Notes: generated by a model from the letters alone, not told the origin. DNA of 64,000 nucleotides from Flavobacteriales bacterium (GCA_016705955.1 JADJKO010000007.1:128944-192943); one strand, 5' to 3'; counted from the first letter of the stretch, positions 292-40,878 are shown. Numbers and translations are program-made.

Positions 292-1403
292 TCAAGGAGG
301 ACCCGGATCCTGGAACGCCGGGTTGTTCAGGAACTCATCGTCCGTGAGCGTGTGCAGGAAGGCTAGCAACTGGGCTTTCTTCTCCGGGGTCAAGCTCAAT
401 CCTCCCTGCGTGAACTTCATGAATGGAGAAATGGTAGGCGATGGATGACCACCACTGTTGTAATGTTCGATCACCTCTTCCAGGTTCTCGAAACGTCCGT
501 CATGCATGTACGGAGCGCTTACTGCCACATTGCGCAATGATGGCACTTTGAAGAGACCCATGTCCTGGGGAAGTCCGGTTACACCGCCGCGGCCAAGATG
601 GGTGAATATGCTGTCCAATCCGTTGTTGCGCATGGAGCCATCCGTGAACCGGGCGCCGCCATGTGGGTGGCAATGGAAACAATCCGCACCCCACTGTCCG
701 CCCAAGCCCAAGGAGGGATCGCCACCTTCCTGTTGCGTCAGTAGGAAGCCGAGTTGCTCCTCCGGTGTCAATTGCTCTTCACCACGCATGAACTTGTCGA
801 AGCGTGAGTTCCGCTGATCATCGTCCGCACGAATTGCGCGATCGCCTTCGCGGTCTTGTACTTATCGATCGTCGTGCTTCCGAAGGCAGCTTGATAGAGC
901 GCCACGTACGCGGGATCCGCCTGCAACTTGGCCACGGCGTTCGGCCAGGTCTCGTGCATCTCGATCACGTTCTCCACCGGCCCCAGGATCTGGTCCTCCA
1001 AGCGCGGGGCACGGCCATCCCAGAAGAATTGGTGCTCCCACCCGAGGTTCTGCAGCACCATGCTGTTGCGGTTTCCTTGGATCCCGTCGATCCCCGTACT
1101 GAACCGGGAGCCGTGATCGCTGAACGCAAAGACCTGTGCATGGCAGTCAGCGCAACTCTGCGTATTGTTCCCGCTTAGTCTTTCCTCATAGAAGAGGAAG
1201 CGCCCCAACGTCACCCCTTCCACGGTCATCGGGTTGTCCGCCGGGATCGTCATCGGCGGGAAGTTGGCAGGAATGACCAATGCATAGGGCGTCGTCACCA
1301 CTCCGTTGTCCTCCTCCTCCTGCTGCTTGTCAGGCTTGCATGTCACGAAAAGCCCGGTGATCAACAGGCCCAGGAACAATGGATGTCGGACGTGGAACTT
1401 CAT
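292..1403 (-). pseudogene. di-heme cytochrome c peroxidase (CCP/MauG/MbnH family) lipoprotein, copy A; disrupted by a 1-nt frameshift near 808-812
   Basis: Two adjacent minus-strand ORFs, 768..1403 and 292..789. The N part has a lipobox signal (LFVTC) and the first haem motif CADCH. The C part has the second haem motif CFHCHPHGGARFTDG. Joining them reconstructs ...MISG-NSRFDKFMRGEE..., which matches copy B, if one A is restored in a GGAAC run. Confidence 0.7.
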
Positions 1404-2407
1404 GGTACTTGATCAATGGTTCGTTCGTCGGTGAGCGCGTTCAGGAAGGCGATGAGATCCAACTTCTGCTCTGGACTCAAGTCAAAGGTCCGCATTTCAG
1501 GATCGCGGTTCACGTGTGGCAGCCCGCCACTTGCAAAATGGTCGATGACCTGCTCCATGGTGCTCATACTTCCGTCGTGCATATACGGGCCGGTGCGTGC
1601 GATGTTCCGCAAGGTCGGGGTCTTGAAGCGGCCGTTGTCCGCTGGGTCCAGTGTGATGCGTTCGCGACCAACATCCGCGTAGGTCAGGTACAGCCCGATA
1701 TTGTGGTAATCATGGTCGCTGAGGTCATGTCCATTGTGGCACGCCGTATAATTCAATTCATCATTGTTGAAGAGGACCATGCCCCTGATCTCGCTATCGG
1801 AAAGTGCGGTCTGCTCTCCTTGCATGTAGCGGTCATACCGCGACCAACCACTGATCAAGGTGCGCTCATAGCAAGCGATCGCCCGCGAAAGGTTCCACGC
1901 GTTCAAGGGTTCACCGAACGCCTTCATGGCAAGTGTGTTGTATGGCTCTTGGTATCGGAGTGCCGTGGCCACTTGATTGATGTTGTGATCCATCTCCACC
2001 TCATCGTGGATCGGCGCGATCACCTGCTGCTCCAAGGTCGGCACACCGCCATCACGGAAGAAGGCACGGTGGTAGGCGACATTCGCCAGCGAAGGCGCGT
2101 TGCGCATACCCAATTGACCATCCACGCCGCCGCTCAATGCGGTGGTGTCGCTGAACGCGTGATCGGGGAAGTGACACGAAGCGCAACTGATCGATCCATC
2201 ACGCGACAACCGTGGATCGAAGAAGAGTGCCTTGCCCAACGCCGTGGATGCCACAGTGAGTGGATTATCCGCTGGAACATCGGGTGCCGGAAATCCAACA
2301 GGCAACACCAGCGCGAATGGCGCATCGCTTTCCGTGGGATCCGGATCGGACTCGCGCCGACATCCGCCGAGAACGAGCATCACCGCTATCGGCACCAACC
2401 ACTTCAT
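1400..2407 (-). CDS. cytochrome c peroxidase / MauG / MbnH-like di-heme family lipoprotein, copy B
   Basis: Lipoprotein signal (LVLGGC). N-terminal haem motif CASCH and the conserved CCP core (PSLANVAY, WDGR-like, YMHDGS). The second motif reads YTACH rather than CXXCH. The stop overlaps the copy A start by 4 nt. Confidence 0.8.
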   Translation of the reverse strand: MKWLVPIAVMLVLGGCRRESDPDPTESDAPFALVLPVGFPAPDVPADNPLTVASTALGKALFFDPRLSRDGSISCASCHFPDHAFSDTTALSGGVDGQLGMRNAPSLANVAYHRAFFRDGGVPTLEQQVIAPIHDEVEMDHNINQVATALRYQEPYNTLAMKAFGEPLNAWNLSRAIACYERTLISGWSRYDRYMQGEQTALSDSEIRGMVLFNNDELNYTACHNGHDLSDHDYHNIGLYLTYADVGRERITLDPADNGRFKTPTLRNIARTGPYMHDGSMSTMEQVIDHFASGGLPHVNRDPEMRTFDLSPEQKLDLIAFLNALTDERTIDQVP

Positions 2408-3156
2408 AGAACCTCCAGGGCCATGCTGCGTCGCACGTTGCGCGTAAGCTTGAGCGCCAATGGATAATTCCCTCCGTGTGATTGGTTCTCCGTGGTCACA
2501 TTGATCGTGTCCTGCGGTGTGGCCAGGAAATGATCCACCGCGATGCGCAGGACCAATTTCGTCGTGACATCCTTCTCCGTACCAAAAGGCAACGCCGGGA
2601 ACAATTCCGCCGTGGTGAAGCAGGTGTCCATACCGGTGTGGACCGAGAAGGTCGACAAGAGCGGACCAGTGCCATTCGGATCCGGATCGTAGCGACCATC
2701 GAACAACACGAATTTGTAACCGGTGGCCCAGCTCCAGTACATCCCGTTGTTCACGCTCATCGGGTGTTCATCACCATACAACGCAGCATTGGTGTAGTTC
2801 AGGTCATGCGGCAATCCGATCCCCGCACGCATGCCGAGCCAATTCCCGACAGGCACTTGGAGGTCGAACTGGAATGGGCCGTTCCCCAGATCGAGCAGAC
2901 GCACTTGTTCCATGGTCGACTCTCCGGTCGCGCTCACCAGACGCAGATCGCTCAAGTACATCTTGAGGAACTCCACTTGGAACCGGTAGCCATGCGGGGC
3001 GATATAAGGCGTGTACCGCTGCAAGGGTTGGCCGTTCCACTCCGGGCGCACTTCGATCCGCAAGGTGGAAGCCGCCGTACGCGGCTTTACCGGTTCGTCG
3101 GTGCGGCAGGCCATCAACAAAGCTGCACAGACGAAGAAGAAGAGGGATCGGGTCAT
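2404..3156 (-). CDS. MbnP-like lipoprotein, probable partner of the di-heme peroxidase (MbnP/MbnH-type metallo-mystery pair)
   Basis: A lipobox signal (LLMAC) on a 250-aa protein with no enzyme motifs, encoded directly upstream of the MauG/MbnH-like peroxidase with a 4-nt overlap. This is the genomic arrangement of MbnP-MbnH pairs. The family assignment is by context and size only. Confidence 0.4.
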   Translation of the reverse strand: MTRSLFFFVCAALLMACRTDEPVKPRTAASTLRIEVRPEWNGQPLQRYTPYIAPHGYRFQVEFLKMYLSDLRLVSATGESTMEQVRLLDLGNGPFQFDLQVPVGNWLGMRAGIGLPHDLNYTNAALYGDEHPMSVNNGMYWSWATGYKFVLFDGRYDPDPNGTGPLLSTFSVHTGMDTCFTTAELFPALPFGTEKDVTTKLVLRIAVDHFLATPQDTINVTTENQSHGGNYPLALKLTRNVRRSMALEVL

Positions 3157-3304: not shown

Positions 3305-6300
3305 ATGTTCACCGTGCTCAGGAGCAGCGCCGGCGCAGGCAAGACCCATGCCCTGGTAAAGAATTACCTGCGCCTATGTCTGGCCACGGACAATGCCACC
3401 GCGTACCGGCACGTACTCGCACTCACCTTCACCAACAAAGCGGCCAGCGAGATGAAGGAGCGCGTGGTGCGCTATATGGAACAGCTCGCCGCTGGCGACC
3501 ATGCATCGGCACCCATCCAGGATGTCCTGAGCGATCTACAACGAACGGCTCATCTGGATCAAGCGTCCACGTCCGACCGCGCGAAAAAGGTCCTGCACCA
3601 CATGCTTCATCATTGGGATGAAGTGGCCATCAGCACCATCGATGCGTTCACGCGCAGGGTGGTCCGTCCGTTCTCACGGGATCTGCAATTGGATCAGGAT
3701 CTGCGCATGACCACCGAGCACGAGTGGTACAGGGAAAGTGCAGTGAAAGCCGTGATCGCCGAGGCGGGGATCAACGCACCGCTCACCGAACTGCTCACAG
3801 CGGCATGCGAACAACTCTTGGATGACGAGGCGCGTTGGGATCCTGCGCTTCCCCTCTCTGAACTCGGAAAGGAACTGGACAAGGAATCGTCCATCGCTCC
3901 ACTGGCCGCTTTGCACGGCATGGATGCGGAAACGGTGATGGCCTTGACCGAGGGCCTTCGAAAGGAAACAGGAGCCTATGAGCGCGCGGCGCAAAGCCTT
4001 GGCAAGCGCATTGTTGAAGGGATCCAAGCAGCAGGGATCACTCCCGAGGAACTTGCTGGCGGAAAGAACGGCTACCATTCCTTCTTCCGGAAGTTGGCCG
4101 CCTTCGGCGATGAATGGCTGGAACCATCCGCGACCGCACGCAAGGCGTTCGACAATGACAAATTGGGAAGTGGCAAGATCAAAGGTGCTGCCGTAGCCGC
4201 GCTGGAGGAACTTGGTCCGCACCTGCACGCGTGGTTCGCAGAGGCGAACGAACTGCTCGCCTTGGGCCAGCGGGATCATTTCGTCCGGGCTGCTGTACTG
4301 CGCGAATTGCCCTCCGCATTCGCGTTGATCGAACTGGATCGAAGTCTGCGCATGTTGAAGGAAGCGGATGGCGTGGCCTTCTTCAGTGATCTCACACGTC
4401 TGGTCGCCCAAGTGGTCCGCGATGAACCCGCACCATTCATCTTCGAACGGTTGGGTGAACGCTACCGGCATTTCCTGTTGGATGAATTCCAGGACACGTC
4501 CTTGCTCCAATGGCACACCTTGCTTCCGTTGATCCACAACGCGCTTTCCAGCGGCGGAAGTGCATTGCTCGTAGGCGATGCGAAGCAGGCGATCTATCGC
4601 TGGCGGAATGGTGAGGTCCGGTTGTTCACCACACTGCCAGGTCTCTTCCCTCCGGCCAGGACACCGGTTGAACGCGAATACGAACAAGCACTTCGATCGA
4701 ACGATCACCCGATCGAACCACTGGCGATCAATCACCGATCGGCCTCGACCATCATCGAATTCAATAACGGCGTTTTTGGTGCATTGGCTGCGACACTTCC
4801 GGAGAGCTTGCGCCCGGTATACACCGCGCACGAACAAATAGTACGACGCAGTGAACCGGGGCGCGTGCGAATGGAACGCCCATCCGATAGCGAACCAACC
4901 GAGGAGCGGGCTGCCACCATGGACGAGTTCGTGCTTCGGAGCGTTCGTGATGCGGAGGACGATGGCTTCGCACCAGGGGATATCGCGGTGCTGGTGCGCA
5001 CTGCGGCGATCGGGCAAACAATATCGCGTGTCCTCACGGAAGCGGGCTACTCGGTCACTTCACCGGACGGTTTGAGATTGGAGGGTGATGATCTTGCCGA
5101 ATGCCTCATCGATCTGCTTCGTGTAGTTCACACGAGTGATCCCGCTGCTGCAACGCGCGTAGTACAATACCGCGTACGCATCAGAGCGTCAGCGAGCGAC
5201 GAACAAGTCGATCCGTTCGGAACAGCCACGAAAGGCTTCGACCCAGTGGCTGTGGTAAGGACCTTGTTGGCGGATCACGGATCACTCACGCTACGCACCA
5301 CGATCAACGAGTTGATCGGGCGTTTGGCACAAGCGATCGACGCTTCGCCCGATCCACACCTGCTCACGCTCATGGATGAAGCACACGCCTTCGGCATTGC
5401 GCATGGCCAGGACATCGGTGCCTTCCTGGAACATTGGGACCGCAGCGGCAAACGGCGGAACACCGCAGCGCCAGTGAATGCACAGAGCATCCAAGTGATG
5501 ACCGTACACAAGGCGAAGGGGTTGGAATTCCCTGTCGTGATCATCCCCAGCACGCGAATGGCCGCAGGCGGCACACAGCGTGAGCGCTTGTGGATCCAAC
5601 CCGGAACGGCTGTCCCGGAACTCGAACATGCCTTGGTGGCGAAGAGTGCGATCCTCCGCGATGCAGCGCTGCCGGAGATCCGCGAGGAGGACGATCTGCG
5701 AAAACTCGATGAGCTCGACCTCCTCTACGTGGCCTTCACACGCGCCGTGCAGCAACTTCACGTGTTCCTTCCTAATTCCAAACCGGACGAACTGACCAAA
5801 GGCCTTCAGAAGTACATGGAAGATCACGGACATCCCGACGTGCTCGATACCGGTGAACGGACCGGGCCATGGACGGCGCGAACCGCTGATCCCACCGGAT
5901 CGATCACTATCGCCATGGGCACACCACCCGGTCTTGCCATTCGTTTCGAAGCGACCGAGCACTGGGACCCGGCCGATCCGGATCCGTACCGCCGATATGG
6001 CAATGCGGTCCATGCGATCCTTAGCAGGGTCGATCATCCGGAGGACCTGGAGCGAGCGATCTCCACGACGATCCTGGAAGGGCTGATCCCTGAAACGGAT
6101 GCGATGGTTCTGCGCGATCGGCTTGACCCGCTGCTACGTTCGGAAGAGCTTATTCCTTGGTTCGGTAGCGGAGTGAAGGTGCGCACGGAGAGCGCGATCA
6201 TCGATGCGAGCGGAAGAACACACCGCCCCGACCGCGTCGTCTTCGATGGAGATACGGTTCGCGTCCTCGATATCAAGACCGGTGCCTCTGATGAACGACA

Positions 6301-6412
6301 TCAGGATCAGGTGCGCCGGTACATGCGCTTGCTCGGTGATCTCGGATACGCGCATGTGGAAGGAGCCCTGTTGTACATAACCGATGGAACCCTGATCCCC
6401 GTAGCCGCATGA
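3305..6412 (+). CDS. AddA-like ATP-dependent helicase/nuclease (UvrD-family helicase with C-terminal PD-(D/E)XK nuclease)
   Basis: N-terminal UvrD motif I (SAGAGKTHALV) and helicase motifs (LVGDAKQAIYRWR, TVHKAKGLEF). C-terminal PD-(D/E)XK signature (DRVVFDGDTVRVLDIKTG). 1035 aa. Confidence 0.8.
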   Translation: MFTVLRSSAGAGKTHALVKNYLRLCLATDNATAYRHVLALTFTNKAASEMKERVVRYMEQLAAGDHASAPIQDVLSDLQRTAHLDQASTSDRAKKVLHHMLHHWDEVAISTIDAFTRRVVRPFSRDLQLDQDLRMTTEHEWYRESAVKAVIAEAGINAPLTELLTAACEQLLDDEARWDPALPLSELGKELDKESSIAPLAALHGMDAETVMALTEGLRKETGAYERAAQSLGKRIVEGIQAAGITPEELAGGKNGYHSFFRKLAAFGDEWLEPSATARKAFDNDKLGSGKIKGAAVAALEELGPHLHAWFAEANELLALGQRDHFVRAAVLRELPSAFALIELDRSLRMLKEADGVAFFSDLTRLVAQVVRDEPAPFIFERLGERYRHFLLDEFQDTSLLQWHTLLPLIHNALSSGGSALLVGDAKQAIYRWRNGEVRLFTTLPGLFPPARTPVEREYEQALRSNDHPIEPLAINHRSASTIIEFNNGVFGALAATLPESLRPVYTAHEQIVRRSEPGRVRMERPSDSEPTEERAATMDEFVLRSVRDAEDDGFAPGDIAVLVRTAAIGQTISRVLTEAGYSVTSPDGLRLEGDDLAECLIDLLRVVHTSDPAAATRVVQYRVRIRASASDEQVDPFGTATKGFDPVAVVRTLLADHGSLTLRTTINELIGRLAQAIDASPDPHLLTLMDEAHAFGIAHGQDIGAFLEHWDRSGKRRNTAAPVNAQSIQVMTVHKAKGLEFPVVIIPSTRMAAGGTQRERLWIQPGTAVPELEHALVAKSAILRDAALPEIREEDDLRKLDELDLLYVAFTRAVQQLHVFLPNSKPDELTKGLQKYMEDHGHPDVLDTGERTGPWTARTADPTGSITIAMGTPPGLAIRFEATEHWDPADPDPYRRYGNAVHAILSRVDHPEDLERAISTTILEGLIPETDAMVLRDRLDPLLRSEELIPWFGSGVKVRTESAIIDASGRTHRPDRVVFDGDTVRVLDIKTGASDERHQDQVRRYMRLLGDLGYAHVEGALLYITDGTLIPVAA

Positions 6413-6858
6413 AACCGGAGTTGACCGTGAAGCATTTCGATGAACTTACTGTTCGTGAATTGCACGACATCCTTCGGCTGCGCGTCGATGTCTTCGTAGT
6501 GGAACAGGCGTGCGCATATGCGGAAGTGGACGGCAAGGATCCATCCGCGATCCATGTGATGGGTTGGTCCGATGATGAGCTGATCGCCTGCGCTCGGATC
6601 CTTCCCCCTGAAGAGGATGGGCTACCTCACGTTGGCCGGATAGTGGTCGCAGCAAGTCATCGCGGCAAGGGTCTCGCACAGCGGTTGATGGATCGGATCA
6701 TGATGACCTTGAACGACACTTATGGATCGAAGCGGTCGGAACTCGCAGCCCAAGCGCACTTGCAGAAATTCTACGAACGCTGTGGTTACGTGCGTGTCAG
6801 CGAGGAATATCCGTGGGATGGAATACCGCACGTGGACATGCGGCATGACGCCGAGTGA
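6409..6858 (+). CDS. GNAT family N-acetyltransferase (ElaA-like)
   Basis: Acetyl-CoA binding motif (RGKGLAQRLM). The 149-aa length and architecture are typical of ElaA. The start overlaps the AddA-like stop (ATGA). Confidence 0.75.
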   Translation: MKPELTVKHFDELTVRELHDILRLRVDVFVVEQACAYAEVDGKDPSAIHVMGWSDDELIACARILPPEEDGLPHVGRIVVAASHRGKGLAQRLMDRIMMTLNDTYGSKRSELAAQAHLQKFYERCGYVRVSEEYPWDGIPHVDMRHDAE

Positions 6859-6861
6859 CGA

Positions 6862-9489
6862 CTAGCGCAAGAGCGAGAAATGTCCGGTGTACTCCTTGGC
6901 GAAAGAACCCCACTCCTTGATGCGTGCGGTGTACACGAAGATGCTTTGCGGTGATCCATCACCACTCCATCCTTCTTGCGGATCCGTGGTGCGGAAGACC
7001 AAGTGCCCCCAGCGATCCACGATCACGAGCTCGTATTCGCGCGCACCGGTCACAATGGGTCGCCATACTTCATTGTGTCCGTCACCATCCGGGGTGAAGG
7101 CCGTCGGGGCGTAGAACAAGTGGTCGCTCACGATCACCAGTCGTGTGGTGCTGTCCGCACAACCATGTTCCGTGGCCACCCATTGCTTGATCACATACTG
7201 ACCGGCCTCCGGGAATTCGTATTCGAACCGTGGTTCGTTCACCACCGCTTCACCGATGCTGTACTCCCACTCCACTGCCAGCGACGAGTAATCCTCCACC
7301 GTGATCCGCGGATCAAGCAAGCTGACCTCCTCAGGCAATGCGGTGAACGCGGCCACCGGCATGGGATAGACCTCCACCGCGCCTGGATCGGTGTGCGTGA
7401 TGCTCGCTATGCAACCGGTCGTTGTGGTAGCGGTCAGTGACACTGTGTATGTTCCTGCTTGGGAATAGGTGTGTACCAACGCACTATCCATACTGGTCGT
7501 TCCATCACCCAAGTTCCATTCAAGACTCATCGGAGTCCATGCGGTCGCAAGGCTGGCGAACGGGAACTCCGCACCAACGCACGCCAACGAACCGTTGATG
7601 AAGTCCACCTCGGGATATGGGTACACGACCAGGGAATCCGTGTAGCTCGCTGTGCAGCCGAACTCGGTCATCGTTACTGTGACCGGATACACACCGGGCG
7701 ACGGATAGGCACTGTGGGATTGTATGCTACCGGACGCACTTGGAGAACCCACCGCACCGAAATCCCACAACACACTCACACCGCCTGTTGCCGCACCGAG
7801 CGCCGTGAAGAGCGCGATCTCTCCTGGGCATCGGATCGGTGGTCGGTAGAAGAACGCATTCGGCGCGGCATGGACATCGAAGATGCGCGATGTGGTATCG
7901 GTACACACCGGGCCATTGGTCGCGATCATCGTGATCGTAAAGAATCCTTGGGCGCCATAGGTCCATGAGGGAGACTCCTCCACACTCTGGTCCAAGCTCG
8001 TTGAGGGATCACCGAAGTGCCATTCGTAGCCCGTGGCATCAGTACTCTCGTTCACGAATGCATGCGTCAATGAAACGCAGTATTCGGCTTGCTCAGCGAA
8101 GGCCGCTTCCGGTTGCGGATACACCTGCACATTCGCGGTGAAACTGTCCGTGCAACCGAAGTCACTTACTGTGAGCGTGACCGGCATCACGCCATTCGCC
8201 ACGAAATCCGCAGTGACCTGCATGCCCGATGCGCTACTCGGTGTGGCGCCGATCCCCAGATCCCAAGTGACCGTTGCGGTGTTCAGGTTGAACGGCCCGG
8301 TGGCCACAAGCGTCACCGTTTGCGGGTCGCAGAGGATCGGCGGCGGAAGGAAGGCCGGATCAAGCGGTGGTGCCACGAGATAATCCGCGATCGTGGTGTC
8401 CGCGCAAGGCGCGCCTGGATTCGCGATCAGCGTAACGGTGTAGGTTCCCGGAGCCGGGTAGGTGTAGGATGGTTCCGCCTGCGTGGATACATCCGCTGTG
8501 GTCGTGGTGTCGCCGAAATCCCAGGAGTAGCTCTGCGCACCAATGCTCTGGTTCGTGAAGTCCTGCGTAAGGCCGGAGCAGGCCTGCGTTCCGGATTGAG
8601 CGGCGATCACCGCTGTGACCGAGGCATCACACAACACCACGCGGAACATGAAATCCCGGCGTGCGGTCCCGATCAGGACACCATTACGGTACTCCGATAC
8701 ACAGACCCCGACGGTGAAAGTGCCTTGCACCGTGGGGTGGACCGTAAGCAGGCCCGTCACTGGATCGATGGCCAACGGCGGGTTGCTATCCATCGGGTAG
8801 GTTCCCGAATATCCGGGTGCATAGTTCACCTCCATGTACGGCGGCGCTGGTGCAAGTGGTGCTGGCTGAATGGCGTCCGCACCTTGGTACGGCGCACACA
8901 AACCATACACGAGTTGATCACCATCCGGATCCGATGCACTGTGATCGAAGCTCATGTCCTGTCCCATGCACAGGGCGATGGGCGGATAGTCATTGAACCG
9001 TGGTGACCCATTGATCGCATTCGGCGGGCCAGGGATCCAAACCGTGCATGTGATGCCTTGTTGCCCATTCAGGTTCACCATGGCCGGTGTCCTGCAGCAC
9101 CGTTGGTAACTGATGGTGTACCCACCGGCGATGGGCGGCAAGGTCATGACCTGCACATACTCGGTGCTGGCCACGCACACCGTCGGTGGCGCAGAGAGGC
9201 ACGGGTCATTCAGTTCAACCGGCACGGTGGTCTCACCGGGAAAGTTCACGGAGAAGCTATTGATCAACGATCCCGCTGAGTTGTACACCGCCAACTGCGC
9301 TTGGCTGTCGAAGACGGTCCCGTTCACATTGTCCGGTCCACAATCACGGTAGAGCCGTAGCGTGACGCGATACTGGTTCCCGCCCAGATGATCGTAGAAC
9401 ATGTCCCCACCGATGATGTGCGTCGCGAAGGATCCCAGCGCGAACGCCAAACCGGCGAGGCAGAGGATCGTGCGCTGCAGGTGGTTCAT
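6862..9489 (-). CDS. secreted PKD-domain protein with T9SS type-B C-terminal sorting domain (gliding-motility-associated CTD) and a cysteine-rich N-terminal module
   Basis: Signal peptide. PKD-like WDFGD motifs. C-terminus FTPDGDGHNEVW...HFSLLR matches the type-B T9SS CTD. The N-terminal ~300 aa are Cys-rich (RDC, RCCR, GVCV, LCDAS) and shared with the next gene. Confidence 0.75.
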   Translation of the reverse strand: MNHLQRTILCLAGLAFALGSFATHIIGGDMFYDHLGGNQYRVTLRLYRDCGPDNVNGTVFDSQAQLAVYNSAGSLINSFSVNFPGETTVPVELNDPCLSAPPTVCVASTEYVQVMTLPPIAGGYTISYQRCCRTPAMVNLNGQQGITCTVWIPGPPNAINGSPRFNDYPPIALCMGQDMSFDHSASDPDGDQLVYGLCAPYQGADAIQPAPLAPAPPYMEVNYAPGYSGTYPMDSNPPLAIDPVTGLLTVHPTVQGTFTVGVCVSEYRNGVLIGTARRDFMFRVVLCDASVTAVIAAQSGTQACSGLTQDFTNQSIGAQSYSWDFGDTTTTADVSTQAEPSYTYPAPGTYTVTLIANPGAPCADTTIADYLVAPPLDPAFLPPPILCDPQTVTLVATGPFNLNTATVTWDLGIGATPSSASGMQVTADFVANGVMPVTLTVSDFGCTDSFTANVQVYPQPEAAFAEQAEYCVSLTHAFVNESTDATGYEWHFGDPSTSLDQSVEESPSWTYGAQGFFTITMIATNGPVCTDTTSRIFDVHAAPNAFFYRPPIRCPGEIALFTALGAATGGVSVLWDFGAVGSPSASGSIQSHSAYPSPGVYPVTVTMTEFGCTASYTDSLVVYPYPEVDFINGSLACVGAEFPFASLATAWTPMSLEWNLGDGTTSMDSALVHTYSQAGTYTVSLTATTTTGCIASITHTDPGAVEVYPMPVAAFTALPEEVSLLDPRITVEDYSSLAVEWEYSIGEAVVNEPRFEYEFPEAGQYVIKQWVATEHGCADSTTRLVIVSDHLFYAPTAFTPDGDGHNEVWRPIVTGAREYELVIVDRWGHLVFRTTDPQEGWSGDGSPQSIFVYTARIKEWGSFAKEYTGHFSLLR

Positions 9490-9521
9490 CAGACCTTGTC
9501 GTTGTATCCTGTTCGGTGTTG

Positions 9522-11387
9522 CTATCGCAGGATGGTGAGATGACCGGAATACTCCCTTCCATCATCCATCTGGAGCACATAGAAGTAGGTCCCATCCGGA
9601 AGGCCAGCACCATCCCATTGGTTCTTGTAGTTGGTCACTTCGTACACCTTGTTCCCCCAACGACTGTAGATGGTGAGTTGGTTGTGATAGAACTCAACGT
9701 TTGTGATGTGGAAGGTCTCGTTCGTGCCGTCGCTGTTCGGGCTGAAGACGTTCGGGATCACGATATCGCCGCCCAATACCTGATAGTCCTGACTTGTCGC
9801 ATCGGTGCATCCATCGGCCGTGGTCACTTGCAGGGTGATGGTGTAGGTACCCGGCCAGGAAGTATTCCAAGTGATGAAGGGCGCGGAGGCGCCGAGGGGA
9901 TCACTATCCAATGTCCAATCCCATGTGACGAATGTTCCACCGTTGCCATTGCTCGCATCCGTCAGGTCGACCACGGTGCCCACGTACTGCGGGGAGATCG
10001 GGTTCGCATTGAACGCCGCGACAGGCAACGCGTAGTTCGTGACGAAGTCGGTGTACGAATTCGTGCAGCCATTCTCAGCCACCAATAAGGAGAACTCGTG
10101 AACGCCCGGCCCCGCGAACTGTGCGGTGACGATGCTATCGGAGGAACTCTGCGGGACGCTGCCGGCCCCGAGGATCCATTGCAGCGATGCACCCGCCCCG
10201 AACATCCCCTCCGCCACCAAGGTCACGGGGTCATTGCCACAGAATGGCTCCGGCGGCACCACGAATGGTTCCGGTGTCAAGTACACTTGGTAGGGGGTCT
10301 GCACCGTATCCGCACAGGTCGTTCCGGGATTCGCGATCTGCGTGATCACATAGGTCCCTTGGTTCTGGTACGTCCAGGTCGGGTTCTGCTCCGAGCTGAC
10401 ATCATCCACCACATCGGGATCCCCGAAATCCCACGCCCAGGTCTGCGCTCCGAAGCTGGTGTTCACGAAGGGCATGGTCAGACCAGAACACAGCAGACTT
10501 GGAGGTTGTGGTTGTATCCCTGCGACCACCGAAGCATCGCATGGCACCACTTTGAAAAGGAAATCACGACGCGTTTCCGTCAGAAGAACCCCATCGCGAT
10601 ACTCCTTCACGCAAACACCCACGGTGAAGCTGCCTTGCAAGGTGGGTGTCAGCGTGAGTTGCCCGGTCACAGGATCGATCGCGATGGCAGGATCGGAATC
10701 GATGGGATACGTCTCGGAATATCCAGCTGCCCATGGTAAGAATGAATAAGGCGGGGCCGATGGAGGATTCGGTTGCGGATCGAGCGAGGTGCCACCATTG
10801 TATGGTGTACACAGTTCGTAGGTCAAGGAGTCGCCGTCGGGATCAAAAGCACTGTGGTCGAAGATCAATGGGGCATTCAAGCACAGCGCGACAGGCGGCA
10901 ACTCGTTGAACCGCGCAGAACTGTTGGAAACGATACCTGAACCGGGGATCCGCATGGTCACAGTAAGACCCAGATCTCCCGGGGTGATCAGGTTACTGAT
11001 GATCGCGGTCCGGCAACAGCGCTGGTAGGTGAGTTGATAACCATCAGCCGTAGGAGGCAGGTCGAAGATGCCTGTATAGGAGGTGGTCTCCACACACACA
11101 TCGGGTGGAAGCGTGAGGCAGGGTGAATCCAACGTGATCGGGATGAACGACCCACCGGGAAAGCTGAGCGATTGGGTGTAGAGCAGGCCGCCTTGGCCGT
11201 CGAACACGCCGATGACCGCGCTCGCGTCGAACGCGATACCAGTACAGTCCCGATAGAGCTTCAGGGTGACCTGGTACTGGCTTCCGCCCAAGTGATCGTA
11301 GTAGAATTCTCCGCCGATGATGTGGGTGGCGTTCAACTGGGACGCACCCAAGAGTGTGGTAACCAACAAGGTCAAGCGCGACATCAT
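9522..11387 (-). CDS. paralogous secreted PKD-domain protein with T9SS type-B C-terminal sorting domain
   Basis: Same N-terminal Cys-rich module (THIIGGEFYYDHLGGSQYQVTLKLYRDC...RCCR...GVCV...PCDAS). PKD motif WDFGD. C-terminus FSPNSDGTNETF...HLTILR. The likely start is the Met before signal peptide MMSRLTLLVTTLLGASQLNA. The upstream in-frame extension to 11483 is probably not translated. Confidence 0.75.
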   Translation of the reverse strand: MMSRLTLLVTTLLGASQLNATHIIGGEFYYDHLGGSQYQVTLKLYRDCTGIAFDASAVIGVFDGQGGLLYTQSLSFPGGSFIPITLDSPCLTLPPDVCVETTSYTGIFDLPPTADGYQLTYQRCCRTAIISNLITPGDLGLTVTMRIPGSGIVSNSSARFNELPPVALCLNAPLIFDHSAFDPDGDSLTYELCTPYNGGTSLDPQPNPPSAPPYSFLPWAAGYSETYPIDSDPAIAIDPVTGQLTLTPTLQGSFTVGVCVKEYRDGVLLTETRRDFLFKVVPCDASVVAGIQPQPPSLLCSGLTMPFVNTSFGAQTWAWDFGDPDVVDDVSSEQNPTWTYQNQGTYVITQIANPGTTCADTVQTPYQVYLTPEPFVVPPEPFCGNDPVTLVAEGMFGAGASLQWILGAGSVPQSSSDSIVTAQFAGPGVHEFSLLVAENGCTNSYTDFVTNYALPVAAFNANPISPQYVGTVVDLTDASNGNGGTFVTWDWTLDSDPLGASAPFITWNTSWPGTYTITLQVTTADGCTDATSQDYQVLGGDIVIPNVFSPNSDGTNETFHITNVEFYHNQLTIYSRWGNKVYEVTNYKNQWDGAGLPDGTYFYVLQMDDGREYSGHLTILR

Positions 11388-11729
11388 GTTCCTTCGACCG
11401 GTTCGGGGGGATGGAAGTTGCCTGTATGTCATGGACCCGGGTCGAGTGTGAAAGTAGCGGTTCACGGACATATGGTTTCCCACTCACCGACCGAAATAGG
11501 AAGATAGCGGCCTTGGTCGCCATCGATCATCTGAGCCACCCGGAGTTGTTCCGGGTACGCCTTTGCCAGGACCTCGTGGATCACGGAACGCCCACCGACC
11601 ACTTGGACCTCGGTGAATCGGCCCGGTCCGTCGATCCGGTAGTAATGCGGTGCTCCGTTCAATCGGCGGTAGACCGGAAACCCTTCCCGGGATCCTGCAA
11701 CGGCGTGCGAATTATCTTCCCCCTCTTCC

Positions 11730-14456
11730 ATGGCGCGCTTCCTGAAACAATTGGCCGACACCCTGTTGGCGCGCCATCGCGACGAATTGGAGCATGTCGC
11801 GGTAGTGCTACCCGGTCGGAGGGCCGGCTTGTACCTGCGAAAGTATCTGGCAGAAGCTTCCGGCACCGCGTTGTGGAGTCCGGAGATCATGGATCCCGGC
11901 GAATTCCTCTTGCGCATTGCGGGGCTTCGAGAGGCGGATCCAATTGAGATCCTTGTGCTCCTGCACCGCGCACACTGCGATCTGTCCGGTGCCGATGCGG
12001 AGTCCTTGGCCGAATTCCTGCGGTGGGCGCCGACCACGTTGCGCGATATGAGCGAGATCGATGCGCACCTGCTTGATCTCGATGACGTGTACCGGGACCT
12101 GCTGGCGTACCACGAACTGGACGACTGGAGTTTTCTGGCGAGCAAGGAACTCAGTCCATCGCAACGATCGGCACGGGAGCAATGGGTGCGCCTAGGGCAA
12201 TTGCATCGCAGGATGAACGAGCTGATGACCGAAAGAGGCATCGGCACATCCGGTTCGATCGCGCGCTTGGCTGCGGAACGCGCTGCGAATGCGGATCTTC
12301 AGCTCCCGTGGCGGCATGTGTGGGCGGCTGGCCTGAACGCACTGGAACCCGCTGCGGTAGCGACCTTCCGGTCACTCTCCGGGAAAGGCCTTGCCAACTT
12401 CGCATGGGATGTGGATTCCTATTACCTCGCTGACCAGGAGCACGAGGCTGGGAAATTCGTCCGACCATCCATGCATGTCCTTGGCGCTGGATCGATACCG
12501 GTGCGAAATGACATTCTTGAGCACCAGCGAGAGATCGACGTCGTGACCGTAGCGCATGACATGGCGGCGGTGCATGTGGCTGCCGCGTGGATCAAGGACC
12601 TGACCGACGCACAACGAAAGGATGCGGTCCTGATCCTGGCGGATGAGAACCTCATTCTGCCATTGCTGAACGCGCTACCCGAGGACTCCGGAACGGTGAA
12701 TGTGACCATGGGTATCCGGTTGGATACGCTACCGGTCCATGGCCTGGTGGAGCGTTTTCTTCAACTGGCCATTGTAGCTCGTGGGATGGGCGCCGTTCCG
12801 CTAAGGGAACTCGCTTCGTTGGTGATGCATCCGCTGCTGAACCGCGGGGCTGCTACCGATAGCGTGGTGGAGATCCTGAACGGGATCACCGACGCATCGA
12901 TCTCCATTCCGCGGTTGGAACAATTCCTGAGCGACGCATCCATTGATGATCGTGGGCACATCATGAATGTGGTGCAGGCTGCCTTGCACGAAGAGCCTTC
13001 GCTCGGGGTCCAAGCGGTGATCGCATGGGCCGCATCCGTCCAACGCGGTGATCGCCTCGGAACCGAACAACTGTATCAACTCGCCAAGGCGGAACAGGAA
13101 CTTTCCCGATCGCTGGTGGTCAATGGCCGGAACTCCGTGGATCCCGCGACCTATGCCGCGATCCGGGAACGTGCGCTGCGCGGTCGTCGCTTGGCGCTCT
13201 TTGGCGAACCCTTGGCAGGCTTGCAGATCATGGGACTGCTCGAGACACGTGCACTCGACCACGCGCATGTATTCATACTCGGTGCCAATGAAGGCGTGCT
13301 GGGCGGAAGCGAGCCGCCACAGAGTTGGATCCCCTTCGAACTTCGCAGGCATTATCATCTTCCGCTTCGGGCGGATGGTGAGGCCATCACGAGTTATCAC
13401 GTTCACCGGCTGCTTCATTGTGCAGAACGGGTTTGCCTGGTCCACTCCACCGGTGCCGATGGATCCGCAGCACCCACGCGCTTCATCGCCCAATGGGAAC
13501 ATGACCTTGTTCCGATCGGTCACACGGTGATCGGCCATCGATCGCTTCATGTTCCGCCTTCCGATCGGAGAAGTCCATCGATCAGTGTACGGAAGAGTGA
13601 TCCGGTAGTGGAGCGCTTGGACGTATTGCGGAAGAAAGGCCTTTCACCTTCTGCCATCGGAACCTGGTTGCAATGTCCGCTGGACTTCTACTTCAAGTAT
13701 GTTCTTGGCTTGAAGGACACGAACAAGCAAACGACCGAACTGGGGAGTGACGTTCTCGGGAGCGCGGTCCATGCCGTTCTGGAACGCGCGTACAAGCCAG
13801 CCTTGGGAAAGGTGCTGCGCGCGGAGGATCTGCTTGCAGCGAGTAGCAGGATCAAGGCGGAACTCCTGTTGGAATTGAGCAAGGAGATCCCTCCTTCGAT
13901 GCTCCGCACCGGCGATCATCACTTACGGATGGGTATGGCAACCGACGCCTTGAACCGGTATCTGCGGACCGAAGCGGTACGTGTGGACCAAGAGGTCAGC
14001 GTTCCGGTAGGCCTTGAAAAAGTACTGAACGGTGTTCTTCCCGATGGCACATGCATCAATGGCAAGTGCGACCGTATGGAAACGCGTAATGGCGTACTAC
14101 ACCTGCTGGACCTGAAGACGGGCAGTGTTCGACAAGCGGATCTGAAGCTAGCAGAATTGGATCGGGGATCGATCCAACGGAAACACCGGTACGCGCTGCA
14201 ACTCTTGATGTACGCATACATGGTCTTCCAAGAGAACGCCGACCTACGCTCCCTTCGGACCGGGATCATCCCTTTGCGGACTCCTTCCGGATCGTCCGGG
14301 ATCTGGTTGACCGTGGAAGGCTCGAACCTGCTCCTGCGCGAACAGCTCGACCGGATCGGCGAAGTGATCCAGCAATTGGTCGCAGAGATCATGGATCCGG
14401 CAACGGCTTTCCAGCACGACCCGGAGAGCGAGTGGTGTACCTATTGTGTGCCCTGA
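11730..14456 (+). CDS. AddB-like PD-(D/E)XK nuclease family protein (partner of the AddA-like helicase)
   Basis: 908 aa. C-terminal nuclease motif (VLHLLDLKTGS). Terminal Cys pairs (CINGKC ... CTYC) are consistent with an AddB-type Fe-S/nuclease domain. Confidence 0.75.
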   Translation: MARFLKQLADTLLARHRDELEHVAVVLPGRRAGLYLRKYLAEASGTALWSPEIMDPGEFLLRIAGLREADPIEILVLLHRAHCDLSGADAESLAEFLRWAPTTLRDMSEIDAHLLDLDDVYRDLLAYHELDDWSFLASKELSPSQRSAREQWVRLGQLHRRMNELMTERGIGTSGSIARLAAERAANADLQLPWRHVWAAGLNALEPAAVATFRSLSGKGLANFAWDVDSYYLADQEHEAGKFVRPSMHVLGAGSIPVRNDILEHQREIDVVTVAHDMAAVHVAAAWIKDLTDAQRKDAVLILADENLILPLLNALPEDSGTVNVTMGIRLDTLPVHGLVERFLQLAIVARGMGAVPLRELASLVMHPLLNRGAATDSVVEILNGITDASISIPRLEQFLSDASIDDRGHIMNVVQAALHEEPSLGVQAVIAWAASVQRGDRLGTEQLYQLAKAEQELSRSLVVNGRNSVDPATYAAIRERALRGRRLALFGEPLAGLQIMGLLETRALDHAHVFILGANEGVLGGSEPPQSWIPFELRRHYHLPLRADGEAITSYHVHRLLHCAERVCLVHSTGADGSAAPTRFIAQWEHDLVPIGHTVIGHRSLHVPPSDRRSPSISVRKSDPVVERLDVLRKKGLSPSAIGTWLQCPLDFYFKYVLGLKDTNKQTTELGSDVLGSAVHAVLERAYKPALGKVLRAEDLLAASSRIKAELLLELSKEIPPSMLRTGDHHLRMGMATDALNRYLRTEAVRVDQEVSVPVGLEKVLNGVLPDGTCINGKCDRMETRNGVLHLLDLKTGSVRQADLKLAELDRGSIQRKHRYALQLLMYAYMVFQENADLRSLRTGIIPLRTPSGSSGIWLTVEGSNLLLREQLDRIGEVIQQLVAEIMDPATAFQHDPESEWCTYCVP

Positions 14457-14504: not shown

Positions 14505-15281
14505 TCAACGGAACGCGATCTTGTAGGAGGTCGTTTCGCCGTTCCGCTTCAGCTTGAGGTAGTACACCCCGCTGCCCATGGAGGTGAGATCCATCTCCTT
14601 TCGGTAGGTGCCTTGGAAGTCACGGACTGTCTCATTGAACACCGCCTGACCAAGTGTATTGATGATCTCGACGGTCACATCGGTCGGGGTGCTGTTCGAG
14701 AACTGGAAGGTGAAGACCCCGTTGTTCGGGTTCGGCTGGATGATCACGCTACCATCCTCTTCTGCGGTAGCAAGACCCTTGAAGATGATACCGGTGCGAT
14801 CAAGGCCGCCGAGCGATACGTAGTAGTTGCCGTTGTTGGCCGTCTGGTTCGTCCACGCATCGTTCATCAATTCGAATTCACCCTTACCCGTCACCGGGAT
14901 CGAGGCGATCACCACTTCCTTACCGGCCTCCATGCGCGCATCCAGATCCACCAATGGGGTGATCCCGAAACCGGCGTACACCTGATAATTGAATGCGCCA
15001 TCCACGTGAACACCACCGGAGCGGACAACAGGAATGCCGGTGGCCATGGCACCTTCTTGAGCTATCGTGCCCAAGTTGGCTCCCGAGGAGCGATCCCAAC
15101 GCACAGTGAAGACCAAGCTGGAGAAAATACCATTGAAGTTGGCCGCTGGCCGGGCCCGTACTTCCAACTGGTCGCCATTGCGGTACAATCCAACATCCAC
15201 TTGATCCTGTGCCGACACGGCCGCAGGTACCAACATGGCGCTCGTGATGAGCAATGATCCGAGTGTATTCGAAGGTTTCAT
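14505..15281 (-). CDS. small secreted protein with T9SS type-A C-terminal sorting domain
   Basis: Signal peptide. C-terminal NPNNGVFTFQF...GVYYLKLK...YKIAFR matches the Por secretion tail (type A). Confidence 0.7.
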   Translation of the reverse strand: MKPSNTLGSLLITSAMLVPAAVSAQDQVDVGLYRNGDQLEVRARPAANFNGIFSSLVFTVRWDRSSGANLGTIAQEGAMATGIPVVRSGGVHVDGAFNYQVYAGFGITPLVDLDARMEAGKEVVIASIPVTGKGEFELMNDAWTNQTANNGNYYVSLGGLDRTGIIFKGLATAEEDGSVIIQPNPNNGVFTFQFSNSTPTDVTVEIINTLGQAVFNETVRDFQGTYRKEMDLTSMGSGVYYLKLKRNGETTSYKIAFR

Positions 15282-22774: not shown

Positions 22775-23884
22775 CTACTTCATATTGTTCACCGCCTCCT
22801 TGTCCAGGTCCTCACCCGGCTCATCGTCCATCGGCTTGGACGCGGTGTACACGCGCCAACGGGCCAGCACGGCTTCCATATCGGCAGGTAGTGCGCTTTC
22901 GAATTGCATGCGCTTACCGGTGATCGGGTGATCGAAAGCAAGCGTGCGCGCGTGCAGCGCTTGACGCGGCAAAAGCTTGAAGCAATTCTCCACGAACTGC
23001 TTGTACTTGGTGAATGTCGTTCCCTTCAACACACGATCGCCTCCATAGTTGGCATCATTGAACACCGGGTGACCGGTGTACTGCATGTGTACCCGGATCT
23101 GGTGCGTGCGTCCCGTTTCCAGTTTGCACTCGACGAGTGAGATGTAGCGGAAGCGCTCCAGCACCTTCCACCGCGTGACCGCAGGTTTGCCTTGATCGCC
23201 TTCCGGGAAAACGAATTGCACGGTGCGGTCCTTCACACTGCGACCGATGTGCCCTTCGATCACGCCTTCCTCCTCCTCCAAATCGCCCCACACGATCGCG
23301 GAATAACGTCGGTCGCTGGTGCGATCGAAGAACTGCCGCGCGAGGTGCGTCAACGCTTCCTCGGTCTTGCCGACCACCATCACACCGCTGGTGTCCTTAT
23401 CAAGACGATGTACAAGGCCCGGACGCGGGATATCGGCGCCGGGCGTGGAGGGCAACTTGCCGAAGTGGAAGAGCAGCGCGTTCACCAATGTCCCCGTCCA
23501 GTTGCCATGACCCGGATGTACCACCAGCCCTGCTGGCTTGTCGATCACCAACACGTGCTCGTCCTCGTAGATCACCGACAGCGGAATGTCCTCCGGCAGC
23601 AATTCCACTTCGCGCTGCGGATAAGGCAACACGATGCTGATCACATCACCGGGCTTCACCTTCTGGCTTGGCTTGGCCGCCTTGTCGTTCACCAGCACGT
23701 TGCCCGCCTTCGCTGCCACTTGGATGCGATTGCGCGAGGTGTGCGCTAACCGCACGAAAAGGAACTTGTCCAGCCGGATCAGCGATTGCTTCGGATCGCA
23801 GACGATGCGGTGATGCTCGTACAGTTCATCCTCCGAAGAATTGTCCGAAGGAGGTCCCGAATGACTGAGTGCTTCGGTGGCCAT
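22775..23884 (-). CDS. rluD: RluD-family 23S rRNA pseudouridine synthase (S4 domain plus RluA catalytic domain)
   Basis: S4-like N-terminal region. Catalytic motif HRLDKDTSGVMVV with GRTHQIRVHM. Confidence 0.85.
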   Translation of the reverse strand: MATEALSHSGPPSDNSSEDELYEHHRIVCDPKQSLIRLDKFLFVRLAHTSRNRIQVAAKAGNVLVNDKAAKPSQKVKPGDVISIVLPYPQREVELLPEDIPLSVIYEDEHVLVIDKPAGLVVHPGHGNWTGTLVNALLFHFGKLPSTPGADIPRPGLVHRLDKDTSGVMVVGKTEEALTHLARQFFDRTSDRRYSAIVWGDLEEEEGVIEGHIGRSVKDRTVQFVFPEGDQGKPAVTRWKVLERFRYISLVECKLETGRTHQIRVHMQYTGHPVFNDANYGGDRVLKGTTFTKYKQFVENCFKLLPRQALHARTLAFDHPITGKRMQFESALPADMEAVLARWRVYTASKPMDDEPGEDLDKEAVNNMK

Positions 23885-26151
23885 CAGCGTTGAATGAGCA
23901 AGCGTTCCTGCGCGATGGATGAACCATCAGGCCCCACCACCCGAACGACGTACATGCCCGGTTGCAGATCGCTGACCATCATGGTCGCAGGTTCCCGCCA
24001 CAGCTGCTGTTGGATCAACCGGCCGGTGGCATCGAGGCACTGGACCATGGAACCGTGCGTGGCACGATCGCACCGGATCATCACGGCATCGTTCGCCGGA
24101 TTCGGAAAAAGGATCATGGCACGATCCGGATCCACCGAAAGGCCTTCCTCCACAGATGCGAAAGGATCCGTGGCGGAGACGAATACCGGGCGCATCATCA
24201 GGGAACCCTCGAAACCGCTGTTCGTGAACGACCCGCTGGTGCGATAGAAGATCTTGTTCTGGTTGTTGCGGTTGCGATCGAAGCCGAGGTTCATCCGCAC
24301 GCCGTTCGTCTGCACCCAGCCCACATAGAAGGTACCCTCCACATGGATCGTGGAGTCCAATGGATATTCCACGAAGTGGTTGGCGCCGTCCAACCGGTAT
24401 TGCGGATTGGAGAAGGTGTAGTTCTGGTGCAGGATCACCTCCGGGTTCAAACTGGTCCACACCGTGATCAGGAAGGAGCCGGTCGCCGGGTTCGGTGAGG
24501 ATTGCGGATCGTTCGCCTGCGGGTTGAAGTACATCCGCACCGCGCGCAGCGAATCCTCCCCCACGATATCGTAGCGGTACGCGAGAGAGGCGCCAGCGGT
24601 GTTCAGTCCATAGCTCGATTCCGCGCTTCCATCATCGTAGGCCATGTAGTTGCTCAACTCCTGGATGAAGGTGATGGTGTCATTGCACGCACAGAGATCC
24701 GGCTCGGTGTGTGTCCAGAATTTCACGCGCCAGAACGCCGCATCCGTGGAAAGTCCGGGGTCATATTCGAAGTTGTTCGGTGCCGCAGCGATCGGGTGCT
24801 GGCTATCGAAGATCATCAACGCATTGCCGCTCGCATTCAATCCGTTGGTGAATTGGAAGACAGGGGCGGCATTCTCCTCCTTCGCCACCATGCCGTACTG
24901 GATGAACCGATCCACATTGTCCAGGTTGCGCTGCTTCGCGGTGATGCTCTGCGCCATGTAGGACGAAGGCGACTGCGCGAACTTGGCGAAGGGTACGCTG
25001 GTGTAGGTGTTCAGCAAACTGGACTCCGGATACATGTACGCCACTTCGATGAGGCGCGTGTCATCGAAGGTCCGTTGGTCACCTAACCGCACATAGTCCA
25101 AGTGCCACTGATCGAACGCACCACTCAGCGTGGCATAGTTCAGGAAGCGCATGCGGAAGCCATCCTTCAGGAAGCGGCTTTGCGTCACGGGGACCAACAC
25201 CTGCTCGAATGGCTGAAGCGGGATGTACGGTGTACGCCAGACGCGGTACCAGAGATCCTCATCCGGCGCGTAGAATTCCAGGACAAGGCTATCAATGGGT
25301 TGCACATTCACATCGCCGCTAAGGCCTTGTGGCTGGAAGAAGAAGCTGAGGTAGATGGAATCACTTGCTGGACGGAACAGGTCGATGGGCACGGAAGTGA
25401 GGTGGTCGGCGATACCGTGCGCCGTGTACTGCGCGAAATTGTACGGGTAGCCCGTGCGCGCCAATCCATCGAAGGTGGCCACACCGATGGTGGGCGGTTC
25501 GATGGGATAGGTGCCATTGATGTACACGTCATCGTCCTCCCAAAGGATCAACGGGACGACCGAGTTGTCCGCCTGGGTGTATGTGCGAGGATCCGGCGCC
25601 ACCGTGTAGATGAGAAGGGAATCCTGCAAGAGCTCCGGCGGAACGATGTGCAGCGTGTCCGGCGAAGGGCTCTGGATCGTATCGAAGATGTTGTAGGGCG
25701 GCCAGGCTTGCACCACTTCCGACGTGACCGGATACATGAGGACATTGCGCACGAGCACGGTTACATCCACGAGAGCAGTACGTGTCGTGGTCGACGGGTC
25801 GGTGAGGTCGGTGATGTACCGGAAGGTGGTATCGTCACTGAAGGCCATGTCCGGTGTCGATACTCCAGCGATCTCCAGAGCGTAGATCGTTTCCGTCAGC
25901 GTCACGTTCGCATCCGTGGACTGTGCCCATCGGCTGCGTGTGCGATCAATGGAGAAGTCATCGGCCACAGGGATCGGTTGGGTGGCGTTCTGGTAGATGA
26001 AGTACTCGTTCAACCCTACGGCTTTGCGCATGGCTGCTTGTGCCTCGGGCACCACGCGCATGCCCAGTGGCGTGAGCACTTCATCCTGTGCAAGCACAAC
26101 GGACCCGATCAACAGGAACGGAACGAATAGCAGAACGTGATCAAGGCGCAT
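23884..26151 (-). CDS. large secreted protein of unknown function with T9SS type-A C-terminal sorting domain
   Basis: Signal peptide (MRLDHVLLFVPFLLIGSVVLAQ). C-terminal LFPNPANDAV...GMYVVRVV...LLIQR Por secretion tail. The stop shares one base with the rluD start (TGATG). An upstream in-frame Met at 26247 is less likely. Confidence 0.65.
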   Translation of the reverse strand: MRLDHVLLFVPFLLIGSVVLAQDEVLTPLGMRVVPEAQAAMRKAVGLNEYFIYQNATQPIPVADDFSIDRTRSRWAQSTDANVTLTETIYALEIAGVSTPDMAFSDDTTFRYITDLTDPSTTTRTALVDVTVLVRNVLMYPVTSEVVQAWPPYNIFDTIQSPSPDTLHIVPPELLQDSLLIYTVAPDPRTYTQADNSVVPLILWEDDDVYINGTYPIEPPTIGVATFDGLARTGYPYNFAQYTAHGIADHLTSVPIDLFRPASDSIYLSFFFQPQGLSGDVNVQPIDSLVLEFYAPDEDLWYRVWRTPYIPLQPFEQVLVPVTQSRFLKDGFRMRFLNYATLSGAFDQWHLDYVRLGDQRTFDDTRLIEVAYMYPESSLLNTYTSVPFAKFAQSPSSYMAQSITAKQRNLDNVDRFIQYGMVAKEENAAPVFQFTNGLNASGNALMIFDSQHPIAAAPNNFEYDPGLSTDAAFWRVKFWTHTEPDLCACNDTITFIQELSNYMAYDDGSAESSYGLNTAGASLAYRYDIVGEDSLRAVRMYFNPQANDPQSSPNPATGSFLITVWTSLNPEVILHQNYTFSNPQYRLDGANHFVEYPLDSTIHVEGTFYVGWVQTNGVRMNLGFDRNRNNQNKIFYRTSGSFTNSGFEGSLMMRPVFVSATDPFASVEEGLSVDPDRAMILFPNPANDAVMIRCDRATHGSMVQCLDATGRLIQQQLWREPATMMVSDLQPGMYVVRVVGPDGSSIAQERLLIQR

Positions 26152-39630: not shown

Positions 39631-40029
39631 ATGATCCGCATCCTCCTGCCCATTACCGCCATGCTCTTCGCCACGGGCCTATTCAGTCAGGATGTCGTGA
39701 AGGACCAAGTGGTGGAAGCCCTGCGATCAGGGAATTCAAAAGACCTCTCCGCCTTGTTCATTGCGAACATCGACCTGACGGTGAAGGAAACGGCCGATGT
39801 GTACAGCAAGGCCCAAGCCGAGCAGATCCTCCGCAAGTTCTTCAACGATCATCCACCGGTCGGCATGGTGATCGAGCACAGCGGTGTGAGCAAGAGTGGC
39901 GACAAGTATTTCATCGGGATCCTGCGCACCACCACCGGATACTTCCGCACCACCTTCTTCCTGAAGCGTGTGGATGAGAGCTTCCAGGTGAAGCAGTTGC
40001 GGATCGAGACCAGCAAGAACGACTTCTGA
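39631..40029 (+). CDS. DUF4783-family secreted protein (Bacteroidota-specific)
   Basis: Signal peptide and a conserved ~110-aa domain. It lies immediately upstream of nadC, as is typical for DUF4783. Confidence 0.6.
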   Translation: MIRILLPITAMLFATGLFSQDVVKDQVVEALRSGNSKDLSALFIANIDLTVKETADVYSKAQAEQILRKFFNDHPPVGMVIEHSGVSKSGDKYFIGILRTTTGYFRTTFFLKRVDESFQVKQLRIETSKNDF

Positions 40030-40031
40030 TC

Positions 40032-40874: not shown

Positions 40875-40878
40875 GAGC

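Follow-up and report, generated by a model that had tools for sequence, protein, structure and literature searches.

Type B substrates of the T9SS (type IX secretion system) are anchored via PorP-like proteins (PMC9143113). In Flavobacterium johnsoniae, an adjacent shuttle gene is common and not obligatory for such substrates: it accompanies 9 of the 12, and the three without an adjacent sprF-like gene have a common distal shuttle, Fjoh_1677 (PMC12618676). A second system of concern here, the AddAB operon, pairs a UvrD-type helicase-nuclease with a PD-(D/E)XK partner of about 900 residues. Both come together in a stretch of 64,000 nucleotides from a Flavobacteriales bacterium (GCA_016705955.1, JADJKO010000007.1:128944-192943), hereafter the window. 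Between its AddA-like and AddB-like genes lies an interval of 5.3 kb with four genes, namely a GNAT acetyltransferase gene, two paralogous genes for secreted T9SS proteins (cargo 1 and cargo 2) and a small open reading frame (ORF). We consider it fairly probable that this interval is a vertically inherited neighbourhood and that the cargo proteins are adhesin-like orphan type B substrates served by a distal shuttle. A preliminary description of the same DNA had taken the interval for a cassette that had entered a conserved pair of housekeeping genes.

The two cargo proteins are encoded in tandem on the strand opposite to addA and addB and are clearly paralogous (46% identity over 540 residues, E = 8e-140). 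Both contain the motifs THIIGG..YDHLGG.QY.VTL.LYRDC, QRCCR, GVCV and CDAS, and their C-terminal ends are LLR in cargo 1 and ILR in cargo 2. The sorting domain scored 38.3 bits with TIGR04131 (cut-off 35) and 34 bits with PF13585, CHU_C (cut-off 27), in cargo 1, while the corresponding values in cargo 2 were 57.4 and 83.8 bits. Matches to PKD_4 reached the gathering score for PKD domains (PF18911/PF00801), with 165.5 bits over five stretches in cargo 1 and 52.7 bits over two stretches in cargo 2. By inspection, both proteins have Sec signal peptides with a basic n-region, a hydrophobic core and a small-x-Ala site (SFA|TH and LNA|TH, respectively). The longest ORF of cargo 2 extends to 11483 (GTG), and its start is likely the ATG at 11387/11390 before the signal peptide, as had been assumed earlier. 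Compared with L001, a genome whose AddB is 96% identical, differences at codon positions 1, 2 and 3 numbered 16, 14 and 72 in cargo 1 and 5, 8 and 55 in cargo 2; because they fall mostly at the third position, both cargo genes can be regarded as real genes under purifying selection. In NCBI, cargo 1 is annotated as 'PKD domain-containing protein' (MBK7384357.1). The ORF table and the translations placed all genes of the preliminary description at the coordinates given there, and its account of two paralogous type B proteins with PKD repeats, signal peptides, these motifs and the LLR and ILR ends was borne out, the domains lying above the curated cut-offs.

The N-terminal module of the cargo proteins (the head) had been said to belong to no named family, and indeed no match was found in Pfam or NCBIfam, nor in the PDB by single sequence or profile. 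An AlphaFold2 model built with a 65-sequence alignment was all-beta (predicted local distance difference test, pLDDT, 94.9; predicted template modelling score, pTM, 0.91) with two sandwich domains at module residues of about 1-135 and 145-265, so the structure prediction that had been proposed for the module returned a confident double immunoglobulin (Ig)-like sandwich. Foldseek on this model gave nothing at E < 1e-3; the top matches were tandem Ig pairs, SraP cadherin-like modules and cadherin EC domains (E 0.007-0.03 for cadherin and SraP). The second sandwich contains an NSSPxF linker and a DPDGD motif, and in these two elements as well as in the predicted beta-sandwich it resembles the He_PIG and cadherin-like Ig domains, which however have no counterpart to the first sandwich of the head or to the conserved cysteine pattern. 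Weak matches to He_PIG (PF05345) were obtained in 10 of the 65 relatives (best E 0.003), and the window modules matched neither He_PIG nor cadherin-like models at E <= 0.1. Judging from the model, the fold class appears commonplace and the sequence family uncurated.

This family is very large. When the module profile was searched against 1.84 billion cluster representatives, 21,672 proteins matched at E <= 0.001, and 6,026 reached E <= 1e-30 (at least 6,026 family clusters at 50% identity), and all named matches belonged to Bacteroidota. In nearly every match listed, the module starts at residue 20-35, right behind the signal peptide. PKD domains were found in 51 of the 55 top representatives, CHU_C in 46, a type A tail in two and SprB repeats (PF13573) in two; the module-PKD-type B architecture is shared by 46 of them, and the type A tail is commoner among shorter family members. 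Three proteins of 3,800-6,500 residues (P0233, P0243 and P0260) contain 24-36 stretches that match only positions of about 121-183 of the module profile. The linker and DPDGD region of the module appears, by sequence comparison, to be a reusable cadherin-like repeat element.

Across 38 divergent modules, His3, Gly6, the vicinal Cys110-Cys111, Asp166, Asp170, Gly225 and Arg247 are invariant; His3, Cys110 and Cys111 are also invariant in the 55 representatives, and seven cysteines are conserved in closer members. These three residues, together with a placement behind the signal peptide that hints at a need for a free N-terminus, speak for the head being a secreted enzyme or metal-binding domain, with the N-terminal His and the Cys-Cys as active centre, and not an adhesin. 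We regard this as unlikely, and the structural neighbours give it no support. We also hold to be improbable the wider proposal that the Bacteroidota-wide head family, instead of being a passive Ig-like adhesin tip, forms a new ligand-, metal- or substrate-specific centre that the T9SS displays. Two specific candidates were rejected. One is a histidine-brace head as in lytic polysaccharide monooxygenases (LPMO-like), because the predicted cleavage leaves Thr/Ser-His, with His as residue 2, and cleavage after module position 2 is unlikely since this position tolerates W, R, K and N; the other is a thioester in the head module. The literature on the motif strings of the module yielded nothing useful.

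As adhesins, the cargo proteins would follow a route known from their family: each would be exported by Sec, translocated by the T9SS through its type B C-terminal domain, and then captured by a PorP/SprF-type shuttle, with its gene in another part of the genome, and anchored at the cell surface; this would make it an orphan substrate. The PKD-domain stalk would display the head of two Ig-like beta-sandwiches and, by analogy, the most likely target of the head is a surface, a polymer or another cell, which makes the adhesin-like role suggested in the preliminary description seem plausible. No match to PorP_SprF (PF11751) was found among the 43 window ORFs scanned, as had been stated for the neighbourhood, and the downstream neighbour of cargo 1 is the convergent GNAT gene. 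Similarly, there was no PorP_SprF gene beside two other type B members of the head-module family. The orphans of F. johnsoniae (Fjoh_1123, Fjoh_1720, Fjoh_4934; PMC12618676) resemble the cargo proteins in having a Sec signal peptide, a TIGR04131/CHU_C C-terminal domain, no adjacent porP/sprF-like gene and an adhesin prediction; they have Fjoh_1677 as their shuttle, and the comparison covers signal peptide, C-terminal domain and gene context. SprB with its partner SprF is also comparable, being a surface protein of repeated Ig-like domains with a type B C-terminal domain and PorP-like retention, the last of which would apply to the cargo proteins by inference. In contrast to SprB, neither cargo protein matched SprB repeats (PF13573), there is no adjacent sprF, and they are far smaller (621 and 875 residues). 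Type A cargo genes at 14505-15281, 23884-26247 and 45133-46374 of the window indicate that the organism uses a T9SS, and they show nothing more.

The vertical inheritance of the interval is suggested by gene order. The order AddA-GNAT-cargo (one or two genes)-small ORF-AddB was found in eight of nine related Flavobacteriales contigs, with AddB identities of 36-96%. A whole-contig scan with AddB gave one near-identical genome, L001, with the same order, and the remaining synteny was taken from look-ups of contigs with AddB homologues (L001-L012 denote the homologous contigs looked up). Two cargo genes are present in L001, L003, L002 and L004 (AddB identity 96, 49, 47 and 44%, respectively), while in L011 and L012 (38% each) the order is unchanged except that there is one cargo gene, of about 708 residues. 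L006 (36%) also has one cargo gene of about 708 residues, with an unrelated gene with a type A C-terminal domain between it and the small ORF. In L005 (38%) the block is absent and trehalose genes lie upstream of AddB. Downstream of the block, genes for a response regulator, a thioesterase (4HBT) and menaquinone synthesis occur in all block-bearing contigs; MbnP and MauG-type peroxidase genes lie upstream of AddA in most of them, and a type A-tail cargo gene of 257 residues follows AddB in five of eight. Because these unrelated flanking genes are also largely collinear, the conservation is best read as general collinearity and not as the mark of an island, and it is most likely by chance that the cargo genes stand between addA and addB.

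The cassette proposed in the preliminary description, horizontally acquired, duplicated and inserted between normally adjacent repair genes, could draw on the strand of the cargo genes, on the lack of the block in L005, and on the Bacteroidales contig L009, the sole adjacent case, where addB and addA directly follow one another and overlap. We judge it quite unlikely. Apart from the order shared down to an AddB identity of 36%, the window has addA...addB, the reverse of the L009 pair, with 5.3 kb and four genes between; in other lineages the pair is unlinked (in two contigs, one of which is L005, within a range of 10 kb) or has different genes between, as in one further contig where three unrelated genes separate AddA and AddB. 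GC content is flat over the interval and its flanks (0.57-0.61), neither direct nor inverted repeats stand at its borders (the sole long repeat comes from the 5' coding sequence of the paralogous cargo genes), no tRNA was found in the window, and a Pfam scan detected no recombinase flanking the interval. None of the signs of a genomic island or mobile insertion (deviant composition, repeats, tRNA, recombinase, patchiness) was therefore observed. A recent insertion is largely refuted, and an ancient one, before the clade diversified, is a possibility. As far as gene order can tell, the block is ancestral to this Flavobacteriales lineage, for which 'normally adjacent' is a misdescription: the statement holds for one Bacteroidales contig and fails where genes lie between addA and addB or the two are unlinked. 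Of the two findings that the preliminary description had named as telling against it, an ancestral gene order in related genomes was found, and a match of the N-terminal module to a well-described family was not. The literature on AddAB gene order in Bacteroidota gave nothing useful.

The cargo duplication is younger than the block. In a neighbour-joining tree of the N-terminal modules and in the identity matrix, position-1 and position-2 orthologues separate in the window, L002 and L003, with identities of 67-75% among orthologues at one position and 52-55% across the two positions; for position-2 orthologues the alignment matrix gives 71-74%, and the single-copy cargo forms group apart in the tree. 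This position-wise grouping points to a tandem duplication that is old, yet younger than the block, and that predates the split from relatives whose AddB is 47-50% identical. An ancestor with one cargo gene thus gained a second by tandem duplication, and cargo 1 then acquired additional PKD domains.

The fourth gene of the interval, the small ORF at 11462-11731, was absent from the preliminary description. Orthologues of 78-91 residues with 16 invariant positions stand at the same place in seven related contigs, and the ORF is present only where the block is present and not in L005 (tblastn). It had no Pfam match and is annotated by NCBI as a hypothetical protein. Its start codon and that of AddB, on opposite strands, overlap in one CATG (11729-11732), so each promoter must sit within the coding sequence of the other gene; in relatives the two are also head-to-head and either overlap or lie no more than 58 nucleotides apart. 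A functional tie between the block and AddAB, with joint control of surface proteins, a small regulator and DNA repair or uptake as one example, would suit this promoter coupling, the restriction of the small ORF to block-bearing contigs and the position kept over deep divergence, but it is very improbable given that the functionally unrelated flanks (MbnP/MauG, menaquinone synthesis) are largely collinear with the block, which indicates general collinearity, that cargo-family members elsewhere stand in quite different surroundings, and that no DNA-binding or repair domain was found in the cargo proteins or the small ORF.

Some points weigh against an inherited neighbourhood with adhesin-like orphan substrates. 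The adhesin role rests on architecture and on general statements about type B substrates, and the invariant His (mature position 2) and the vicinal Cys-Cys are not obviously needed by a plain adhesin; they could form a metal or catalytic site in the head. The proposed distal PorP/SprF shuttle was not seen within the 64 kb examined. Furthermore, the block and a small cytoplasmic ORF have been kept over deep divergence, and collinearity may not be the whole explanation.

The coordinates of the genes and of the cargo domains are given in Table 1.

Table 1. Genes of the addA-addB interval and domains of the two cargo proteins, in window coordinates
Feature	Coordinates	Strand	Characteristics
AddA-like helicase-nuclease, 1035 aa	3305..6412	+	UvrD-helicase, UvrD_C, weak PDDEXK_1
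GNAT N-acetyltransferase, ElaA-like, 149 aa	6409..6858	+	Acetyltransf_10, Acetyltransf_1 and Acetyltransf_7 above cut-off
Cargo 1, 875 aa	6862..9489	-	Signal peptide, N-terminal module, about 5 PKD-type domains, type B T9SS C-terminal domain
Cargo 1, type B T9SS sorting domain, aa 794-875	6865..7110	-	TIGR04131, PF13585
Cargo 1, N-terminal module, aa 22-296	8602..9426	-	Two Ig-like beta-sandwich domains (predicted)
Cargo 2, 621 aa	9522..11387	-	Signal peptide, N-terminal module, PKD-type domains, type B T9SS C-terminal domain
Cargo 2, type B T9SS sorting domain, aa 543-621	9525..9761	-	TIGR04131, PF13585
Cargo 2, N-terminal module, aa 20-292	10512..11330	-	56% identity to the cargo 1 module
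Small conserved ORF, 89 aa	11462..11731	-	No signal peptide; first gene of the minus-strand row
AddB-like nuclease subunit, 908 aa	11730..14456	+	PDDEXK_1 98.3 bits; weak addB_alphas match

On the plus strand, AddA and GNAT form an overlapping pair in which the ATG of GNAT and the TGA of AddA share ATGA. The minus-strand row consists of the small ORF, a 74-nucleotide spacer, cargo 2, a 32-nucleotide spacer and cargo 1, and it converges on GNAT. The stop codons of GNAT and cargo 1 are convergent with 3 nucleotides between them (6856-6864), leaving no intergenic room for terminators. No TAnnTTTG motif was seen by inspection in the 74-nucleotide spacer upstream of cargo 2.

The identities previously assigned to the AddA-like, GNAT and AddB-like genes agree with the ORF table and the domain matches. 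The nuclease match of AddA is borderline (PDDEXK_1, 21.7 bits vs a Pfam cut-off of 22), and RecB-like/AddA models of NCBIfam match the protein below their equivalog cut-offs; AddB-type NCBIfam matches are similarly weak and do not reach the equivalog cut-off. The domain composition expected of AddAB, a UvrD helicase with PD-(D/E)XK and a PD-(D/E)XK partner of about 900 residues, is present, as in the L009 operon, and the two genes do not form one adjacent operon, being 5.3 kb apart here and in seven relatives. AddB homologues are labelled 'ATP-dependent helicase/nuclease subunit B' by JGI, and AddA orthologues in L001-L004 and L006 show 43-95% identity (tblastn). GNAT matched the generic GNAT models of Pfam and scored 129.3 bits with the ElaA equivalog NF007644, below its cut-off of 171. 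It lies directly 3' of AddA, with an overlap of 1-4 nucleotides, in L003, L004, L006, L011 and L012. In L002, a metagenome-assembled genome, the GNAT orthologue (4723-5155) is uncalled and split over two reading frames by an apparent frameshift.

Several observations concern the neighbouring genes. Right after AddB lies a gene for a type A T9SS cargo protein of 258 residues (14505-15281, minus strand), whose position is kept in L001-L005 and L012. Directly upstream of AddA, an MbnP and MauG-like (MbnH-type) pair (1400-3156, minus strand) occupies the same place as in L003, L004, L006, L011 and L012. A second MauG/di-haem peroxidase gene (292-1403, minus strand) is apparently split into a CCP_MauG N-terminal part (768-1403) and a part with no Pfam match (292-789); its counterpart in relatives is a single gene of 373-380 residues, and the split reflects either a frameshift or pseudogene or an assembly error. 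Farther away, a protein of 1028 residues (58065-61151, plus strand) joins a C-terminal class III adenylate/guanylate cyclase domain to Reg_prop beta-propeller repeats and Y_Y_Y, a sensor part of the kind typical in hybrid two-component systems of Bacteroidota. Additionally, three large minus-strand ORFs of 495-960 residues (39849-41480, 49655-51142 and 52450-55332) had no Pfam match at E <= 1e-4; they lie in or next to a polysaccharide cluster rich in glycosyltransferases (about 29-52 kb).

With the gene order inherited and the absence of a partner gene already described, the value of the locus as a genomic oddity is small. The finding is an ordinary one, in that the cargo proteins belong, as typical representatives, to a very large and unnamed family of type B passengers of the T9SS and lie in an inherited neighbourhood. 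Its by-product is the definition of that family, which comprises thousands of clusters, most of them bearing a type B sorting domain, and has no Pfam or NCBIfam model. The predicted fold and the invariant residues could help to annotate Bacteroidota proteins that are now just 'PKD domain-containing', and research on orphan type B substrates gains a defined passenger module.

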